Shown: positions 32,659 to 51,079, counted from the first letter of the stretch. The stretch is 64,000 nucleotides of DNA from an uncultured Actinomycetota bacterium (GCA_963846615.1 CAWJWQ010000011.1:173140-237139), one strand, 5' to 3'. Made by a program: numbers and translations. Notes: a model not told the origin generated them from the letters alone.

Positions 32659-32978
32659 GAGGCGGGGTGCGAGTCCGTGGTGATCGATCCCGTCGCGAAG
32701 CGCTCGTGGTGGTGGATGACCTCGGCGACGACGAAGTTGAACCACTTCTCGGCGAAGGCCGGATCCAGCTGCGCCTCCTCGGCGAGGGCCCGCAACCGTG
32801 CGATCTGGGTGCGTTCGCGCTCCGGATCGGAGGGCGGCATCCCGTTCGCGGCCTTGAGTCGTCCGACCTGCTGCGTGAATTTGAACCGCTCCGCGAGCAG
32901 GTGCACGAGGGCGGCGTCGATGTTGTCGATACTGAGCCGCAGACCGGCCAGATCAGCGGCTACATCCTGCTCAGGCAT
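32655..32978 (-). CDS. Chorismate mutase (AroQ class). Intact 107 aa.
   Basis: Text reads LAGLRLSIDNIDAALVHLLAERFKFTQQVGRLKAANGMPPSDPERERTQIARLRALAEE. Confidence 0.85.
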   Translation of the reverse strand: MPEQDVAADLAGLRLSIDNIDAALVHLLAERFKFTQQVGRLKAANGMPPSDPERERTQIARLRALAEEAQLDPAFAEKWFNFVVAEVIHHHERFATGSITTDSHPAS

Positions 32979-33046
32979 GAAGCGAGACTACCGGGTGTAC
33001 AGCCTTGTCTGTCCCCACAAGTGGGAGGGGTGATAAGTCCTCAGGG

Positions 33047-33082: not shown

Positions 33083-33182
33083 GAAGTCGTACGCACCGGG
33101 TCCTCTCAGCCGGTGATCCCCGCCGTACCGACATCGGGCTGCTTGCCGCACCCAGGTCGGTCATCCCCCTCAGGAGTACCCG

Positions 33183-35723
33183 GTGCCGAACCCGCTTCAC
33201 CACGGCATCCCGGTCGCGCGCGGACCGATCGCCACCACCGCGTTCTCGCCTCCTGCACTCGACACCCGCATCACGATCGTCCCCGACCTGCCGCTCGTGC
33301 CCGTCCGCGCCGTCGTCGCGACCGCGCTCGCCGCCGACAAGAGCGCGCGCGACATCGTCTGGGCGGAACTGCCCGCAGCGCCCGCCGACGACCGTGAGGC
33401 GTGGGACGCGATCCGCAGCGCGCTGGCCGCGGCGACCGGGTCCCCTGACGGCGGCGAGCCCGATGAGGCCGTGGCCGCTCAGCTCTCCGCTCTCAAGCGA
33501 CCGCTGCTCCTGGCTCTCGAGCTCGCGCCGGGCGTCTCGCACGAAGTCGACGCAGGCCTGCTCGCGCTGCTCACCGACGCTCCGCACTTCTCGATCCTCG
33601 CGATCTGCTCCGGTCGCCGCATGCTCGAGGTCATGGGGCGTGGCGAGCACGGCGCGCAGCTGGTCTCCCCGGTATCCCTCGTCGTCGAGGCGGCCGAGAT
33701 CCGACGGTTCGCGGGCAAGCTCGGCGTGAAGCTCAGCGACGAGGACGCGCTCGCGCTCGCCCACTCGCCGATGATGCTGCCCGACGTGCTGCCGGCGGTG
33801 ATCGCCTCCGCGAGCCTCGAGGAGATCGAGACCCAGGGCGACGCCGTGTCCTACCTCCTCGACGAGTGCGAGAACTATCTGACGATGCGGTTCCGCGCCT
33901 CCTCCGACGGATCGGTGACCGGGCTGCTGCCGCTGGCCGTGCCCTCGACGCTCACCGCCGACATCCTGGAGATCGTCGCTCCGGAGATCGCCGCCCGCAC
34001 GCCGCTCGACCGGGCGGCGCTCTCCCGCATCATGATCCGCGAGAGCGCCGCGGGCGACGGGCGTTACCGCATGGAGCCGATGCTCCGCCGCATCTTCATC
34101 CTCGAGCTCAAGCTGCGCGACCCCGCGCTCGCCCGACGGCTGAGCTCGTCGCTCGGCGAGCACTTCCGCGAGCGCGGCGAGGTCTTCGAGTCGATCGCCC
34201 ACTTCTCCGACGCAGAGGACTGGGACTCGGTCATCGAGACGCTCGACAGCGAGATGTTCCGGCTGCTCGCCGAGGATCCGCTGCGGGTACACGACGCGAT
34301 CCTCGCGCTGCCCCGCAAGGTGCGCGACGACAACCCGCGCTTCACGCTCTGCCTCGAGGTCGGATGGCAGCCGCGCGAGGGGCTCGCACAGGCGTATCTC
34401 ACGATCGCCCGCCGTGCGGCCGGCATCTTCGCGCGGCTGCCCCGCGAGATGTCGCCGTGGGATCTGCTCCACGTGCTGCTCATCAAGTCCATCGTGTTCC
34501 GGCTCAAGGGCGACTTCGCGGCTGCGCTCGAGGCGGCCCGCGCTCTGGACGCGCTCCTCGACGGCGATGACGACATCGCCGGACGCCCGATCGGCACGCT
34601 CGCCGAGGCGCACTACCAGTCCGGGATGACGCGGCTGCTCGGCCTGGACATGGTCGGTGCCCGCGAGAGCTTCACGCGATCCTTCACGCTCACGCAGAAT
34701 CGCGGTGAGGCAACCGACACGCTCGCCGAGCGCGCCGCGGAAGCCACCGCGCTCGTGCGTGCGCTCGAGGGCGAGACCGATCACGCCTCCACCTGGCTCG
34801 GTCTCGTCGCCGAGACATCGCTCGGGACCGCGGGTCTCGTCGCGCACGCCCTGATCGCGATGGGTCGGCTCGAGCCGGCCGAGGCCCGGCACTGGCTCGC
34901 GTCGCTCGCCGATCCGAGCACCCACGACGAGCTCTGGCCGTTCGCGGTGCACGCGGCGAACCGGTACGGCCTCTACTGGGGCGACCCGGTCGAGACCGAC
35001 GGCGCGCTCGACCGCACCTGGGCGGAGCACGGCGAGCAGCTGGTCGCGGGATCGACCGCGCAGGTGCTGCTCACCAGCGACGCCGCCGACCTGGCGCTCC
35101 TGCTCGGGCAGCTGTCCCGCGCTGAGGCCGCTCTCGACGGGGTCCCCTCGCGCAACACCTGGATCGCCGTGCCGCGGGCGCGACTCGCGCTGCTCGGCGG
35201 CAACCCCAAGCACGCGCTCCTCTTCATCCTCGAGGGGCAGCGCCGCGGACGCACCGAGCGGTACGGGCAGCTCGACCTCGCCGTCCTGCGCGCGGCTGCC
35301 GAGCTCGCGCTCGGTCGCGAGGACGACGCCACGGCATCCCTGCTCCGCGCGGTCAACCAGGCCGACAAGTCCGGCGTGATCGTCGCCTTCCACCTGCTGC
35401 CGCACGAGACTCTCCAGTCGCTCGCCGGTCTCTCGCCCGAGGCTGAGCGCTTCGTCGAGCGGCACGACCTGCAGGGCACCAGCTATCTCGCCCCGTACAC
35501 GGCCGTCGCCGGTGCCCTGAGCGAGCGCGAACTGATCGTGCTGCGCGCGCTCGAGCCGGGGGCGACCGTCGAACAGATCGCGAAGAAGCTGTTCGTCGCG
35601 TCGAACACCGTCAAGGCGCAGCTTCGGTCGATCTACCGCAAGCTCAACGTGTCGACGCGCACCGAGGCGCTGCTCGTCGCGGCCGAACTCGGCCTGCTCG
35701 ACGCGGACTCGCGCTCCGCGTAG
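33183..35723 (+). CDS. Large LuxR-family transcriptional regulator (MalT/LAL-like architecture). Intact 846 aa.
   Basis: The C-terminal HTH reads LSERELIVLRALEPGATVEQIAKKLFVASNTVKAQLRSIYRKLNVSTRTEALLVAAELGLL. A long helical, TPR-like middle region precedes it. I could not find a GxxxxGK[ST] P-loop. Confidence 0.85.
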   Translation: MPNPLHHGIPVARGPIATTAFSPPALDTRITIVPDLPLVPVRAVVATALAADKSARDIVWAELPAAPADDREAWDAIRSALAAATGSPDGGEPDEAVAAQLSALKRPLLLALELAPGVSHEVDAGLLALLTDAPHFSILAICSGRRMLEVMGRGEHGAQLVSPVSLVVEAAEIRRFAGKLGVKLSDEDALALAHSPMMLPDVLPAVIASASLEEIETQGDAVSYLLDECENYLTMRFRASSDGSVTGLLPLAVPSTLTADILEIVAPEIAARTPLDRAALSRIMIRESAAGDGRYRMEPMLRRIFILELKLRDPALARRLSSSLGEHFRERGEVFESIAHFSDAEDWDSVIETLDSEMFRLLAEDPLRVHDAILALPRKVRDDNPRFTLCLEVGWQPREGLAQAYLTIARRAAGIFARLPREMSPWDLLHVLLIKSIVFRLKGDFAAALEAARALDALLDGDDDIAGRPIGTLAEAHYQSGMTRLLGLDMVGARESFTRSFTLTQNRGEATDTLAERAAEATALVRALEGETDHASTWLGLVAETSLGTAGLVAHALIAMGRLEPAEARHWLASLADPSTHDELWPFAVHAANRYGLYWGDPVETDGALDRTWAEHGEQLVAGSTAQVLLTSDAADLALLLGQLSRAEAALDGVPSRNTWIAVPRARLALLGGNPKHALLFILEGQRRGRTERYGQLDLAVLRAAAELALGREDDATASLLRAVNQADKSGVIVAFHLLPHETLQSLAGLSPEAERFVERHDLQGTSYLAPYTAVAGALSERELIVLRALEPGATVEQIAKKLFVASNTVKAQLRSIYRKLNVSTRTEALLVAAELGLLDADSRSA

Positions 35724-38452: not shown

Positions 38453-38486
38453 GGGTTGTTCGGGGTTAAGGGACGGGTTAAGGGAC
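38453..38486. promoter_or_regulatory. GGGTTAA-family array R2: GGGTTGTTCG followed by the exact tandem GGGTTAAGGGAC x2
   Basis: The exact 12-bp direct repeat lies at 38463-38474 and 38475-38486. The TTAA at 38478 supplies the TAA stop of the flippase gene. The array is 90-130 nt upstream of the Wzz/BY-kinase start. Confidence 0.55.
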
Positions 38487-39777: not shown

Positions 39778-40647
39778 TCAGCCCGCCGGGCATGCTCGAG
39801 CGCTCGGGAAAGCCTGCGCGGCGAGCTCGAGCACGTCGCGCAGCATCGCCGCGCGCACCTGGGCGCCGAACAGGGAATGGTCTCCGAAGGGGTAGTCGGT
39901 GACCCGCAGATCGGCACCGCGACGACGCAGCCGCTCGACGGCGCCGGGGCCGCGGTGGTGGGCGAAGTTCTCGGTGTCATCCGGCGTGAGCATCAGTGCG
40001 ACGACGGTGCCGGGACGCCGGGTCGCCGGCTCGAGCAGCGTCTGCGGGTCGTGGAAGAGCTGGAGCCGCGCGGCGACGCGCCAGACCCAGCCGGGGGTGC
40101 GTTCGCGGATCCGCGCCTTCAGTTCGCGGAACGGCATCCGACCCTCGATGTCCTGCCGGGTGAGTTCGGCGTACCCGTCGGCGGGCAGCCCGTGCAGCTT
40201 GAAGTACGTGGGACTGAGCAGGACGGTGAGCCGGGTCGGCCGGAGATCGGCGATGCGGGCAGCCACCCAGGCGCCGGAGCACAGCCCGACGTGGGCGATC
40301 GGGACGTCGGCCGCCAACTCGCCCACCAGCGCATCGACGTCGTCGATCCACGCCTCCGCGAAGATCAGGTTCGGTTCACCCACCCGCACCGGCGTGCTGT
40401 CGCCGGTGATGCGCCGGTCGAACCGGATCGCGCGGATGCCCCGGGCCGCCAGCTCACGCGCCGCGACGACCTGGAAGCGGCCGGGCCCGACGCGGTGCTC
40501 GGCGGCCCCGGGCTGCAGCACGACCACACCCGCCTCGGCGTCTGCCTCGTGGTGGTCTTCGCGCACGCTCTCGATCGCGAACAGGCGCTCGGGGCCGAAG
40601 CGCAGCAGCCGCTCCACGACGGCCACGCCGTCGGGCGCCGTCGCCAC
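39778..40647 (-). CDS. Alpha/beta-hydrolase-fold module 2 (nucleophile elbow GLCSG). It may be fused to module 1.
   Basis: Text reads GVVVLQPGAAEHRVGPGRFQVVAARELAARGIRAIRFDRRITGDS and IAHVGLCSGAWVAARIA. The 289-aa frame is intact and paralogous to module 1. Confidence 0.7.
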   Translation of the reverse strand: MATAPDGVAVVERLLRFGPERLFAIESVREDHHEADAEAGVVVLQPGAAEHRVGPGRFQVVAARELAARGIRAIRFDRRITGDSTPVRVGEPNLIFAEAWIDDVDALVGELAADVPIAHVGLCSGAWVAARIADLRPTRLTVLLSPTYFKLHGLPADGYAELTRQDIEGRMPFRELKARIRERTPGWVWRVAARLQLFHDPQTLLEPATRRPGTVVALMLTPDDTENFAHHRGPGAVERLRRRGADLRVTDYPFGDHSLFGAQVRAAMLRDVLELAAQAFPSARACPAG

Positions 40648-40649
40648 CC

Positions 40650-41449
40650 GGGCCTCCGCGCTGGATCCGCGGCCGGACGATCGTCCGTGCCAGCGGCATC
40701 CTGCGATCGACCCACTCGACGATCTCGCGGACGGCGCCGGCCGGAAGCACCGCGAGGGCGCTCGGCGCCTCGATCCACTCCGCGTGCCCGTCGAGCGGAG
40801 AGACCGTCGATCCGGCGGGCAGCGCGGCGGCGAACCGGGTCACCGCAGGTGCGTCGAGCTCGGCCCGGCGGACGAGGGCGAGGGTGTCGAGGGCGATGGG
40901 CGTGATCTCGACGCCTTCGAGCCACGCGATGGAGTCGGGATGAAGGGCGAGCGACAGCAGCGTGAGCCGCTCGGGGTCGGTGGCCTCCTCGCCGACCGTC
41001 AGGTCGAAGAGCGACTTCTGCCGACGGAGGAACCGGTGTCCCGACAGCGCCGGATCCCACAGCACCAGGCCGTCGAGGTCCGGGATGCGGCGCGCGGCCT
41101 CGGCGGCGAGGAGCGCCCCAGCCGCAAGGCCCGCGAGCACGATGCGCTCCACCCCCGCGGATCGGAGGGCGGTGACCGCCTGCTCGATCGTCGCCAGCCA
41201 GAGCTTCGCCGCATCCGGGACCGCCGTGTCGCCGCTGGCATCACCCTCGCCGACGTAGTCGAAGCGCAGCGATGCGATGCCGCGGGCCTCGAGCTCCTGG
41301 CTGAGCAGCCGCAGCCCGCGATAGCCGAGCACCTGCTCGTAGCCGAGCGGCGGACAGATCACGACACCGCCGCGGGCACCGCCGTCCGGCACGTGCAGGA
41401 ACCCGAGGCTCGGAGCGTCCGGGTCGCCGAACCAGGTGTCGTGCATCAT
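40650..41449 (-). CDS. Alpha/beta-hydrolase-fold module 1 (elbow reads GLAAG). No stop is found before module 2.
   Basis: Text reads MMHDTWFGDPDAPSLGFLHVPDGGARGGVVICPPLGYEQVLGYRGLRLLSQELEARGIASLRFDYVGEGDS and ERIVLAGLAAGALLAAEAA. A GGAAAGG RBS precedes the start. Confidence 0.65.
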
Positions 41450-41472
41450 CTCGGGGTCAGCGCCTTTCCGTG

Positions 41473-42418
41473 TTACAGGCCGAGGCGGGCGCGCACGCCG
41501 ACGGGCCAGCCGTCGACATCGAGACCGTGAGTGCGAAGCAGCGCGAGCGTGGTGCGCTCCATGCCGAAGGCGAGGCAGGCGGCGTGGGCGACATCGCCGT
41601 CGGCGGTGCGGATGCCGAAAGCCGCGGTGAGGTGGTCGCGCTGGCAGTTGGCGCTCGCGATCGCGGTGCCCTCGGCGAGGTCTCCGTACATCGGGACGAC
41701 GATCTCGATCTTGAGGTTCTCGCGCAGCTGGGCGCTGATCAGCATCTTGCCCGCGCGCCCGAAGAACGGGTCGTTGGCGGCCACGGCGTCGACCGGCAGG
41801 CCGAGCGACCTGCAGCGTCTCGATCGCGTTGTCCAGCCAGGTATCGCGGTACTCCTGCGCGCCGTCCGGGTCGCCGACGTACACGAACTCGTGCATCCGG
41901 AACGACTGCATGCGCATCGGATCGAGCGACGGCTCGTGGCGGAAGCCGTAGCCGAAGATGTCGAAGACGCCACCGCCCTCGGGGAGCCGTCCCTCCAGGG
42001 TGGCGTAGAGCGGGTGGCAGATCGCGTTGGTGAGCACGATCTCGCTGGGGTCGAGCCAGCCGTCCCAGGCGCTCGCCCTGCTCGCGCGCCGCGAGGAGCT
42101 GCGCGGTGCTCGCGGTCGCCGCGCTCGAAGCTGGAGACGATGCCGCTCAGGTCGGGGAACGAGGCGATGTAGTCGGTGCGCTCGAAGTCCGCGCGCGGGT
42201 ACACCGGCGGGAAGCGCAGCGCGGTCGCGCCGAGCGGCTCGGCCATCTCGACCAGCACGCGGTCGAGGCCGGTGAGGATCGCCTCGAACGTCGCGGAGCG
42301 CCCGTAGATGCCGGGCACGGACGTGCCGATCAGGAGCCCGGCGTCGAGCAGGTCGGACGCGGAACTCCAGGCGTGCGCGGTCGAGCGGGCTCAGTTCCGT
42401 TTCGAGGATGTCTGTCAT
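41473..42418 (-). CDS. Class II aminoacyl-tRNA-synthetase-like amino acid:[carrier protein] ligase (catalytic core only). At least four frame breaks.
   Basis: Text reads SVPGIYGRSATFEAILTGLDRVLVEMAEPLGATALRFPPVYPRADFERTDYIASFPDL, VLTNAICHPLY, FDIFGYGFRHEPSLDPMRMQSFRMHEFVYVG (motif 2-like) and HAACLAFGMERTTLALL (motif 3-like). The gene encodes about 315 aa and leaves no room for a tRNA-binding domain. Confidence 0.8.
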
Positions 42419-42672
42419 GCCGTCTGTCCTTCCAGGGTCAGCTGCTCCACCGCATCCCGGATCGTCGCCACGGAGGAGAAGGTCTGCTTCGTCAGCAGGT
42501 CGTCGGGGAACTCGACGTCGAAGGCGTCCTCGAGGGCGAGCATCACGTTGACGCTCGCGTGCGAGGTCATGCCGGCCGAGTACAGGTCGTCCACCTCGGG
42601 GAGGCCGGCGGCGGGCGCGCGCAGTTTGGCGTGCGCGTCGAGCACGGCCCGGATGCGGTCGTCGGTGGTCAT
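42415..42672 (-). CDS. Acyl/aminoacyl carrier protein (85 aa)
   Basis: Text reads MTTDDRIRAVLDAHAKLRAPAAGLPEVDDLYSAGMTSHASVNVMLALEDAFDVEFPDDLLTKQTFSSVATIRDAVEQL. There are ATGA overlaps on both sides. Confidence 0.8.
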   Translation of the reverse strand: MTTDDRIRAVLDAHAKLRAPAAGLPEVDDLYSAGMTSHASVNVMLALEDAFDVEFPDDLLTKQTFSSVATIRDAVEQLTLEGQTA

Positions 42673-43124
42673 GCCGTCGCCCCCTGCCGCGATGGCGAGC
42701 TGCGGTTCGGCCGGGATCGCGGCGGCGACCGCCATCGCGATGCCGCCGTCGTGGCTGAGGGAGATGTCGATGCGCGTCGATGCCCTGCCGCTCGGCGATC
42801 GCCTGCGCGGTCGCCGGTCAGCACGACACGGGGACGCCGTTGCGACCGGTGCGTACCTCGATCGACTGCCACGGCACGGCCGCCGTGCTCGGCACCCGCA
42901 GCACCTTGAGCACCGCCTCCTTGGCGGCGAACCGCCCGGCGAGGCGTTCGAGCGCCATCGGCCCCGCGGTCTGCTTTCGCTCGACGCGGGGTGAACACGC
43001 GCGCGAGGTAGCGCTCGCCGAAGAGCTCGATGCTCTCGGCGATCTCGGAGATCGGGTGGACGTCGCAGCCGATCCGGATGCGCGGGGCATGTCTCGGCGC
43101 GGCGCGCTCGGGGGTGCGCTGCAT
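42669..43124 (-). CDS. 4'-phosphopantetheinyl transferase (AcpS-like). Frame breaks.
   Basis: Text reads IRIGCDVHPISEIAESIELFGERYLARVFTP, LAGRFAAKEAVLKVL, WQSIEVRTGRNGVP and ISLSHDGGIAMAVA. Confidence 0.75.
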   Translation of the reverse strand: MQRTPERAAPRHAPRIRIGCDVHPISEIAESIELFGERYLARVFTPRRAKADRGADGARTPRRAVRRQGGGAQGAAGAEHGGRAVAVDRGTHRSQRRPRVVLTGDRAGDRRAAGHRRASTSPSATTAASRWRSPPRSRPNRSSPSRQGATA

Positions 43125-43221
43125 GGGGAGTCCTTCGGCGGACGCGACGGGGGGAACGCACGTCCGTACTCAACCTAGGGACGGGGCGCCGCCACGTCGC
43201 CGGGGAGGCCGACCGAAGCGG

Positions 43222-43246
43222 GGGATTAACCGGGGGGTTAACGCGG
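43222..43246. promoter_or_regulatory. GGGTTAA-family array R3: GGGATTAACCGG followed by GGGGTTAACGCGG
   Basis: TTAA lies at 43226 and 43238, exactly 12 bp apart. The array sits in the divergent gap between the PPTase operon (start 43124) and the GT2 gene (start 43267). Confidence 0.5.
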
Positions 43247-43266
43247 CCCTGTGAAAAGCTGGGCCC

Positions 43267-44155
43267 GTGCCCCGGCTGAGCGTCCTCATCCCCGCGCGTA
43301 ACGCCGCCGGCACGATCGGAGTCCGCTCTCCGCTCGACCCTGCGCGATCTGCCCGACGACGCCGAGATCCTGGTCCTCGACGATGCGTCGAGCGATGGCA
43401 CGGCCGAGCTCGTCCGCCGTATCGGCGATCGACGCATCCAGCTCACCGTCGCCCCTGAGAATCTCGGGGTCGCCCGCGCGCTGGCCCAGCTGCTCGATCA
43501 GGCGGAAGGCGACCTGGTAGCCCGGATGGACGCCGACGACGTCTGCCTGCCCGGCCGGTTCCGCGCCCAGCTCGCGCGCCGATCGAGCGCGGCGCCGACC
43601 TGGTCTTCTCCACGTTCCAGGTCATCGGCGCCGGGCTGCGGCTGCCGGCGCTGCCCGTACCCTTCGGGCCAGAGGCCGGTCGGCTCGCCCTGCTGCTCGA
43701 CTGCCCCTACCCGCATTCCACGGCTCTCGCTCGACGCAGCGCCCTCGTCGACGCCGGCGGCTACCGGATCGTCCGTCGCCGAGGACTACGACCTCTGGTT
43801 GCGCGCCGCCGCCGTCGGGCGCCCGCATCGTGCGGCTCGGCCGCGCCCGGCATCCTGCTGCGGGTCAGCGCCGGGCAGCTCACCGCCGATCCCGGATACC
43901 GGGTCGCGGCTCGCCGCCGATCCGCTCGTCGCCGAGTCCTACCGGGCTCTTGCGCACGAGCTGTGGGGCGTCGACGAGACGCCGTGGCTGCGGGAGCTGG
44001 CGTTTCTTCGCCAGGGACCGCTGAGCCCCGTTGGGAAGAGTCTTCTCGAGCCGTTCATCCATCGCTTCGTCACCTCACTCCGCGATCTCGGCGCGCTGGA
44101 GCGCTGGTACCTGACGCGTCGTGCCCGGCAGGAGCTCGGGCTGCGCGCTCGCTGA
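43267..44155 (+). CDS. Family 2 glycosyltransferase. Several frame breaks.
   Basis: Text reads MPRLSVLIPARNAAGTI. The shifted frame gives AEILVLDDASSDGTAELV and DLVARMDADDVCLPGRF. Later text reads VAEDYDLWLRAA. Confidence 0.8.
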
Positions 44156-51005: not shown

Positions 51006-51079
51006 GGGTCGGAAACGCGGGCTAACCCGTGAACACGGCCCAGGGGATGGGACGCGGGTTAAGCCGCGGGTTAAGCCCG
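51006..51079. promoter_or_regulatory. GGGTTAA-family array R4: degenerate phased units followed by the exact tandem CGCGGGTTAAGC x2
   Basis: GGGTC is at 51006, GGGCTAA at 51019 and GGGAT at 51044. The exact 12-bp repeat lies at 51054-51065 and 51066-51077. The TTAA at 51071 supplies the TAA stop of the GNAT gene. The array is about 175 nt upstream of the priming transferase ORF start. Confidence 0.55.

Follow-up and report, generated by a model that had tools for sequence, protein, structure and literature searches.

Many proteins with a LuxR-type helix-turn-helix domain bind inverted repeats as dimers and not direct repeats, and the SARPs, whose heptamer repeats stand at antibiotic-cluster promoters, combine an OmpR-type winged-helix domain with an 11-bp period. 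MalT, known from E. coli and Klebsiella, forms a multimer that binds cooperatively to arrays of asymmetric boxes, one of which overlaps the -35 region (PMC4381067; PMC7567727; PMC10427625). According to the work of Raibaud et al. (1989), as cited in PMC3161199, MalT drives the divergent malEp/malKp pair. In the actinobacterium Actinoplanes sp. SE50/110, the motif of a MalT-like regulator is TCATCC-N5-GGATGA (PMC7567727). MilO, from the mildiomycin cluster, is a LuxR-family activator that acts on three imperfect direct repeats composed of 11-bp units with 2-bp spacers, and SARP-LAL heptamers are mentioned in the same article (PMC11784345).

The site compared here with these systems, array B, is a pair of GGGTTAA-type boxes in the gap between an operon that begins with an AcpS-type phosphopantetheinyl transferase (PPTase) gene and a divergent glycosyltransferase (GT2) gene. 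We consider it probable that array B serves both the PPTase operon and the probably leaderless GT2 gene through a multimer of a MalT-like regulator, most likely by activating both. Like the Actinoplanes system, this would be an actinobacterial LuxR/MalT-like activator encoded inside the region that it controls, with a motif overlapping the -35 region of many local promoters; however, the Actinoplanes motif is a palindrome ending ~34 nt before mapped start sites, whereas the boxes described here are direct repeats, and the former system is backed by deletion, overexpression, and transcriptome data, whereas the present one is predicted from sequence comparison (PMC7567727). MilO is likewise a pathway-specific actinobacterial LuxR-family regulator, with tandem repeats that can lie far upstream of the start and each aid binding; it differs in motif, protein build, and period (13 bp versus 12 bp here), and its only site, 142 bp upstream of its promoter, does not serve a divergent pair (PMC11784345). 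The resemblance to SARP sites consists in heptameric direct repeats by the -35 of high-GC actinobacterial cluster promoters, with one repeat close to the -10 box. However, the period is 12 bp rather than 11 bp at all sites, and no SARP-type domains, such as the OmpR-type winged helix or BTAD, were detected among the scanned cluster proteins. The boxes also differ from a Lux box, an 18–20-bp inverted repeat for a dimer of the LuxR/TraR kind, since their units carry an asymmetric GGG arm and are repeated in the same direction; read on the reverse strand, array B reached 16.6 bits versus 29.6 bits in the forward direction.

The window, i.e., the whole stretch of 64,000 nucleotides that was analysed, comes from a metagenome-assembled genome (MAG) of Pseudolysinimonas (Microbacteriaceae), which is 59.8% complete and consists of 11 contigs. 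Single-base frame breaks occur throughout the assembly and affect the GT2 gene (43318), the PPTase gene (~42985), and many other genes. Since congeners carry intact copies, these breaks look like long-read indel error rather than real pseudogenes. The annotation was therefore taken from the clean congener G004. In the orientation of the window, the polysaccharide cluster is arranged as follows:

Minus strand: chorismate mutase gene, the first of the series.
33047, 33059, and 33071: array D, a 12-bp-phased triplet upstream of the LuxR regulator gene.
33183..35723, plus strand: gene of the LuxR-family regulator, 846 aa, MalT-like in build, the proposed box binder.
Minus strand: Wzz/tyrosine-kinase-like gene, with array A upstream.
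38463..38481, plus strand: sister array A, GGGTTAA-N5-GGGTTAA, upstream of the Wzz/tyrosine-kinase-like gene.
Minus strand: six-gene operon, with array B (the PPTase/GT2 site) upstream.
42669..43124, minus strand: AcpS-type PPTase gene, the first gene of that operon, with its frame broken in the assembly.
43122..43136, minus strand: PPTase start codon ATG (43124-43122) and Shine-Dalgarno sequence AAGGA (43135-43131).
43267..44155, plus strand: GT2 glycosyltransferase gene (Pfam Glycos_transf_2), start codon GTG at 43267, pointing away from array B.
Minus strand: second operon, whose last gene encodes a priming Bac_transf sugar transferase, with array C upstream.
51056..51074, plus strand: sister array C, GGGTTAA-N5-GGGTTAA, upstream of the priming sugar transferase operon.

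In the G004 copy, the PPTase operon encodes the PPTase, a carrier protein, a 394-aa protein, an amino acid-[carrier protein] ligase, fused alpha/beta hydrolases, and a 441-aa protein. The PPTase frame of the window is lost after ~45 codons, and its G004 orthologue is an ACPS-family protein. The combination of ligase, carrier protein, PPTase, and hydrolase fusion suggests an aminoacyl or acyl decoration of the polysaccharide. The fused hydrolases are of the two types that accompany exosortase A polysaccharide systems in Proteobacteria; the G004 loci of the operon are L044:1668-3359 and L044:713-1654, with the window equivalent at ~39800-42400. In the GT2 frame, the one extra base near 43318 appears in the alignment as an insertion in a single genome, and the G004 copy is intact. 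An in-frame TGA at 43252-43254 precludes any earlier GT2 start.

Positions 43220-43249 of the window read gggggattaa ccggggggtt aacgcggccc and contain the following units:

43222-43230 and 43234-43242: GGGATTAAC and GGGGTTAAC, the two members of the pair.
43223..43230, plus strand: box 1, GGATTAAC, a strong unit, distal to GT2 and proximal to the PPTase promoter.
43235..43242, plus strand: box 2, GGGTTAAC, exactly 12 bp from box 1.
43211..43218, plus strand: putative weak third unit, GACCGAAG, in the same 12-bp register as boxes 1 and 2.

The original prediction had placed two TTAA cores 12 bp apart in a 142-bp gap between divergent start codons, ~100 nt from the PPTase start and 25–40 nt from the GTG of GT2. 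Direct reading of the sequence bore out this geometry: the cores lie at 43226 and 43238, the 142-bp gap extends from the minus-strand ATG at 43124-43122 to the plus-strand GTG at 43267, the measured distance to the PPTase start is 102 nt, and the end of the motif is 25 nt from the GTG. On the PPTase side, the conserved distance is that from the pair to the -10 box and not that from the pair to the start codon.

Due to the 70% G+C content of the genome, TTAA is rare. The window contains eight copies, six of which make three pairs at exactly 12 bp (38466/78, 43226/38, and 51059/71). In the whole 2.6-Mb genome, 87 copies occur, and the only 12-bp TTAA pairs are these three, all located in the polysaccharide cluster; the expected number of pairs at one exact spacing is ~0.003 (87 x 87 / 2.6 Mb). 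A genome-wide position-weight scan, with a matrix built from orthologous units, assigned 29.6–32.3 bits to the three pairs, and the next-best separate site reached 14.6 bits; the reverse-strand readings of two of the three pairs scored 18.7 and 16.6 bits. Restriction avoidance of TTAA was ruled out, because all AT-only tetramers are rare and TTAA is 3x above the Markov expectation.

Comparison of the orthologous regions demonstrated that the pair is kept at this site in nine of nine Pseudolysinimonas genomes, and box 1 is found there in 9 congeners as well as in 4 genomes from outside the GTDB genus. In the alignment of the genus, the 140-bp spacer shows little conservation beyond the two -10 boxes and the region of the ribosome-binding site. 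A control scan with the reversed pattern gave 0–3 matches per genome (both strands summed) versus 7–9 for the real pattern. Outside the genus, the divergent PPTase/GT2 arrangement with boxes between the genes was found in two MAGs labelled Rhodoglobus, a Salinibacterium isolate, sp. G-O1, and an uncultured actinobacterium, in which the best-matching segment of the regulator is 56–64% identical. In all of these genomes (9 Pseudolysinimonas and 4 outside the genus), the pair is found together with the MalT-like LuxR regulator of ~846 aa. Perfect pairs occur in 10 of the 301 sampled Microbacteriaceae genomes, and both multi-pair genomes outside the genus (2/2) carry an orthologue of the regulator. 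The box pair between PPTase and GT2 is thus real and conserved and did not arise by chance. A literature search on the box sequence returned primers and unrelated matches only; the pair would be an ordinary pathway-specific gene switch, newly described for this lineage.

A sigma-70 consensus scan of positions 42900-43500 found no promoter-like site; that consensus is too E. coli-like for this genome, and promoters were therefore called by the actinobacterial TANNNT logic together with conservation. The following elements were predicted:

43172..43177, minus strand: -10 box of the PPTase operon, TAGGTT, with a predicted start site near 43165.
43195..43200, minus strand: possible weak -35 of the PPTase operon, GCGACG, 17 bp upstream of the -10 box, inside the conserved GTCGCCGGG block.
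43252..43260, plus strand: extended -10 of GT2, TG-a-AAAGCT.

On the PPTase side, each of the 13 orthologous regions (13/13) has a TANNNT hexamer at the aligned position. It is unique within the scanned upstream 170–200 nt in all but one of them, L068, where a second hexamer is found 193 nt away. The gap between the pair and this -10 box is 45 nt in six genomes, including the window, 56–57 nt in four, and 68–69 nt in three, and across arrays A, B, and C the gaps take the values 44/45, 56/57, 68/69, and 81/82. The vector strength of these gaps is 0.95 for a 12-bp period versus 0.54 for 10.5 bp, which makes helical phasing a poor explanation of the spacing steps. For a short block at 43211-43218 (CCGAA), the distance to the PPTase -10 box is constant at 33 nt, whereas the strong pair shifts by 12 or 24 bp; the block is recognised as a conserved G(A/C)CCGAA block in the alignment and as a peak at offset 33 in the weight-matrix profile anchored on the -10 box. 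This block may represent a weak third unit of the array, and at the PPTase promoter it would be the unit nearest to the -35 region, near -50 relative to the predicted start site. For array D, the chorismate mutase promoter was also considered as a target; its -10 distances (53–116 nt) do not follow the 12-bp steps, and it was therefore excluded.

On the GT2 side, the extended box TGnNANNNT follows box 2 at 13 nt in five Pseudolysinimonas genomes and at 14 nt in a sixth, and at 23–25 nt in the four genomes outside the genus. The distance from its end to the GT2 start is 6 nt in L064 as well as in the six Pseudolysinimonas genomes, and 7 nt in L069. Even with an N-terminus extended by 3 or 9 residues (G004, G007), the start codon keeps its place next to the TGn box. 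In the two genomes in which GT2 has a leader of 24–36 nt, with 36 nt in Salinibacterium sp. G-O1, a GAGGA ribosome-binding site is present. The arrangement in the window, TGaAAAGCT followed after 6 nt by GTG, has the hallmarks of leaderless genes, namely a -10 box ending 6–7 nt before the start codon and no Shine-Dalgarno sequence, and the same was observed in 7 orthologues. Throughout the genome, TANNNT boxes before good open frames number 228 at a gap of 6 nt and 100 at a gap of 7 nt, with a background of ~10 per offset, and TGn boxes whose hexamer does not start with T number 41 and 25 at these gaps, with a background of ~6. These counts suggest that leaderless genes are very common in this genome, with more than 300 showing the pattern. 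The chorismate mutase gene is one example, with TAGTCT, 6 nt, and ATG at 32978 (window 32976-32990).

The conserved gap between box and start codon, together with this genome-wide peak, indicates that GT2 is very probably leaderless, with the predicted start site at its GTG, 43267. The original prediction had pointed out that, if this mRNA is leaderless or short-leadered, as is common in actinobacteria, the motif would overlap the -35 region of GT2, and both points gain support, since with a leaderless reading the boxes would span -44 to -25 of the predicted promoter. The centre of box 1 (43226) is predicted at -41 from the GT2 start (43267) and at about -61 from the PPTase start (near 43165), and the centre of box 2 at -29 and about -73, respectively; box 2 would thus cover the GT2 promoter from -32 to -25. 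Outside the genus, the box at -39 to -41 of the predicted GT2 promoter is the proximal one in the four genomes concerned. With spacings of 23–25 nt outside the genus and 13–14 nt inside it, some unit is therefore always centred near -39 to -41, so that a box would overlap or abut the -35 region of the predicted GT2 promoter in all genomes that have GT2. As, within Pseudolysinimonas, the spacing is fixed on the GT2 side and shifts by 12 or 24 bp on the PPTase side, indels were tolerated on the PPTase side only.

Two genomes, G005 and G008, have no GT2 at the orthologous position and retain the perfect pair; thus, control of GT2 cannot be the sole role of the pair. In G006 (L033, orthologous site B), a 25-nt deletion has removed the GT2 -10 box, and the retained pair abuts the ATG of GT2. 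Taken together, these three genomes mark the PPTase operon as the constant target and GT2 as an additional one. In G006, a TAAGCT hexamer formed by box 1 and the spacer might replace the lost -10 box.

The protein proposed to bind the boxes is the 846-aa LuxR-family regulator of the cluster. Its best NCBIfam match is the MalT helix-turn-helix domain, its GerE helix-turn-helix domain occupies residues 779–833, and it is collinear with a canonical MalT-type protein across residues 295–839. The predicted structure has a pLDDT of 81 and an alpha/beta N-terminal domain, and the best Foldseek matches of this model are a STAND-TPR protein (6mfv), the MalT NOD (8bob_C), and MalT domain III (1hz4). In this protein, a helical-repeat (TPR/SUPR) sensor leads into the C-terminal LuxR/GerE helix-turn-helix domain, and its N-terminus is modelled as a NOD-like fold without an ATP-binding signature. 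The Walker A motif (GxxxxGK[ST]) was found in none of 11 regulator orthologues. The regulator is MalT-like in build but lacks the P-loop of the MalT-type NOD, and MalT-style ATP-driven multimerisation is therefore not to be assumed.

All loci of regulator orthologues with enough flanking DNA carry arrays. These eight loci belong to MAGs labelled Pseudolysinimonas or Rhodoglobus and to the Salinibacterium isolate, with 56–87% identity in the best-matching segment, and their arrays lie on one strand throughout, one of them upstream of the regulator gene itself. A paralogue of 861 aa in another genus (G023) is 30% identical and has an identical recognition helix, NTVKAQLR; a perfect pair (L075:9755-9773) is situated 15 bp beyond its stop codon. 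The same pair lies ~650 bp upstream of a giant open frame of at least 3031 residues. No other DNA-binding domains were found among the scanned cluster proteins. These data point to the neighbouring MalT-like LuxR regulator as the most likely box binder.

A highly conserved block was also observed in the leader of the regulator gene (33086-33135), just downstream of array D. It can be folded as a nested hairpin, GTCGTACG...CGTAC-CGAC around CACCGG...CCGGTG, and across nine congeners a compensatory change is seen at one base pair and wobble changes at several. The block has no Rfam match; it could function as an RNA structure of the leader or as another operator.

The system is similar to that of MalT in several respects. 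In both, the protein is large, with a NOD (NOD-like by model here), a helical-repeat sensor, and a C-terminal LuxR-type helix-turn-helix domain, and the boxes are short, asymmetric, G-rich, and in direct repeat; for MalT, one of them overlaps or abuts the -35 region of promoters that have no good -35, as predicted here for GT2. At every target promoter here, such boxes are present, as three strong pairs and the triplet of the regulator gene, on one strand, in 12-bp register, and conserved across genera. A single array for two divergent promoters, as proposed here, likewise has its counterpart at malEp/malKp (Raibaud et al., 1989; Vidal-Ingigliardi et al., 1991, both as cited in PMC3161199 and PMC8265627). 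Unlike in MalT, the boxes read GGGTTAA[G/C] rather than GGGGA(T/G)GAGG, they have a strict 12-bp period with pair-to-promoter distances in 12-bp steps, the control region is far more compact and shows no evident CRP-type co-activator site, the regulator is without a Walker A motif, and the targets are Microbacteriaceae polysaccharide genes, one of them predicted to be leaderless. The 12-bp steps in the distance from pair to promoter are compatible with inducer-dependent multimerisation and cooperative DNA binding. What is new for array B is the comparative evidence for two promoters, a predicted leaderless GT2 promoter, and the tolerance of indels on the PPTase side only.

The cross-genome comparison thus supports the original suggestion that one site could serve both divergent units. 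The array would consist of asymmetric 7–8-bp units with the consensus GGGTTAA[G/C], repeated directly with one unit per 12 bp, and we infer that the C-terminal helix-turn-helix domains of the MalT-like regulator bind these units head to tail, as a multimer. A single array would in this way feed two back-to-back promoters, whose predicted start sites are ~102 bp apart, although its orientation is opposite relative to the two targets. At the GT2 promoter, with its extended -10 at 43252-43260, box 1 would act from near -41 and box 2 from near -29; at the PPTase promoter, the boxes would stand near -61 and -73, with the weak unit near -50. Both units would be activated in concert with the other operons of the polysaccharide cluster that bear sister arrays. 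Activation is the most likely sign of regulation because both core promoters look weak, that of GT2 having no recognisable -35 and that of PPTase a poor one.

Other explanations of the pair were weighed against activation of both units. One of them, which we regard as rather unlikely, is that the pair serves the PPTase-carrier-ligase operon only, with GT2 transcribed from an independent promoter and the -35 overlap being incidental. It agrees with the perfect pairs kept in G005 and G008 without GT2, the pair kept in G006 without the GT2 -10 box, and the location of sister arrays A and C, both of which have only a minus-strand operon downstream. However, an incidental overlap does not account for the spacing between the pair and the GT2 -10 box, which within Pseudolysinimonas is fixed at 13 nt (14 in one genome) while the PPTase side shifts by 12 or 24 bp, nor for the four outside genomes, where the distance to that box is still 23–25 nt and a unit is near -40; moreover, GT2 lacks its own -35 in the core promoter. 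Alternatively, the bound protein may act as an operator-bound repressor that occludes the -35/spacer region of GT2 and may still activate the PPTase operon (dual control). In Pseudolysinimonas, box 2 would lie over the predicted GT2 promoter from -32 to -25, where repressors are more typically found, and an extended -10 could permit activator-independent initiation. In the four outside genomes, however, the end of the array lies near -36 to -38, where activators classically bind; the hexamer AAAGCT is weak, with its first T missing; and GT2 belongs to the same pathway as the operons to be activated. We judge repression of GT2 unlikely.

The remaining explanations concern the identity of the binder and the nature of the repeat. 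It is improbable that the boxes are bound by a transcription factor encoded elsewhere or by a nucleoid protein with a preference for AT-rich DNA. A few weaker box pairs conserved outside the cluster would fit such a broader regulator, but the strict co-occurrence with the LuxR regulator across genera, which extends to a site in front of the regulator gene, the perfect pair beside a distant paralogue with an identical recognition helix, and the lack of any other DNA-binding domain among the scanned cluster proteins argue for the neighbouring protein, and the strict GGGTTAA core speaks against a mere AT-rich preference. That the repeat is non-regulatory, whether a product of chance or slippage, a target of recombination or mobile elements, or an RNA-level element, is very hard to credit. 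TTAA is the target site of some transposons, and slippage could generate 12-bp tandem units. However, three pairs were observed where ~0.003 would be expected by chance, the core has been preserved among freely varying spacer bases, neither a transposase nor terminal repeats occur nearby, and Rfam gave zero family matches anywhere in the window. The boxes are located upstream of both predicted start sites and therefore would not be transcribed.

Within the preferred reading, activation of both units by the MalT-like regulator, a more specific form can be outlined, which is doubtful at present: the regulator, as a P-loop-less relative of MalT, might form a head-to-tail filament or an open ring on DNA, in which each 12 bp would be occupied by one DNA-binding domain. 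The strong pair would then be the nucleation site, from which protomers would spread over degenerate units to the promoter. If true, the filament would account for insertions of 12 or 24 bp being the sole ones tolerated between pair and promoter, and one nucleation site would feed a class II-like (-41) and a class I-like (-61) position together. For this class of regulators, nucleotide-independent, STAND-type assembly on a 12-bp DNA ruler would represent a novel mode.

The results provide a testable wiring diagram of a Microbacteriaceae surface polysaccharide cluster, with one regulator, one box sequence, and four to five arrays, in which array B is placed between a putative leaderless GT2 promoter and an operon probably involved in carrier-protein-linked aminoacyl decoration. 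The 12-bp stepping and the missing P-loop may offer a compact model for how MalT-like multimers read DNA. The box pair may also be used as a specific annotation marker of the regulon, given its occurrence in 10/301 sampled genomes of the family.

One conserved pair, GGGTTAAGGGACGGGTGAG, was observed outside the cluster, at L054:1109-1127 in G004 and at the orthologous site of G000 (contig C8, 276268; L052). It is followed after 44 nt by a TAGTGT box and, 6 nt further, by the GTG of a 159-aa open frame. This frame has no Pfam match, and a tRNA-Val gene lies on the opposite side; the frame may be an additional member of the regulon.
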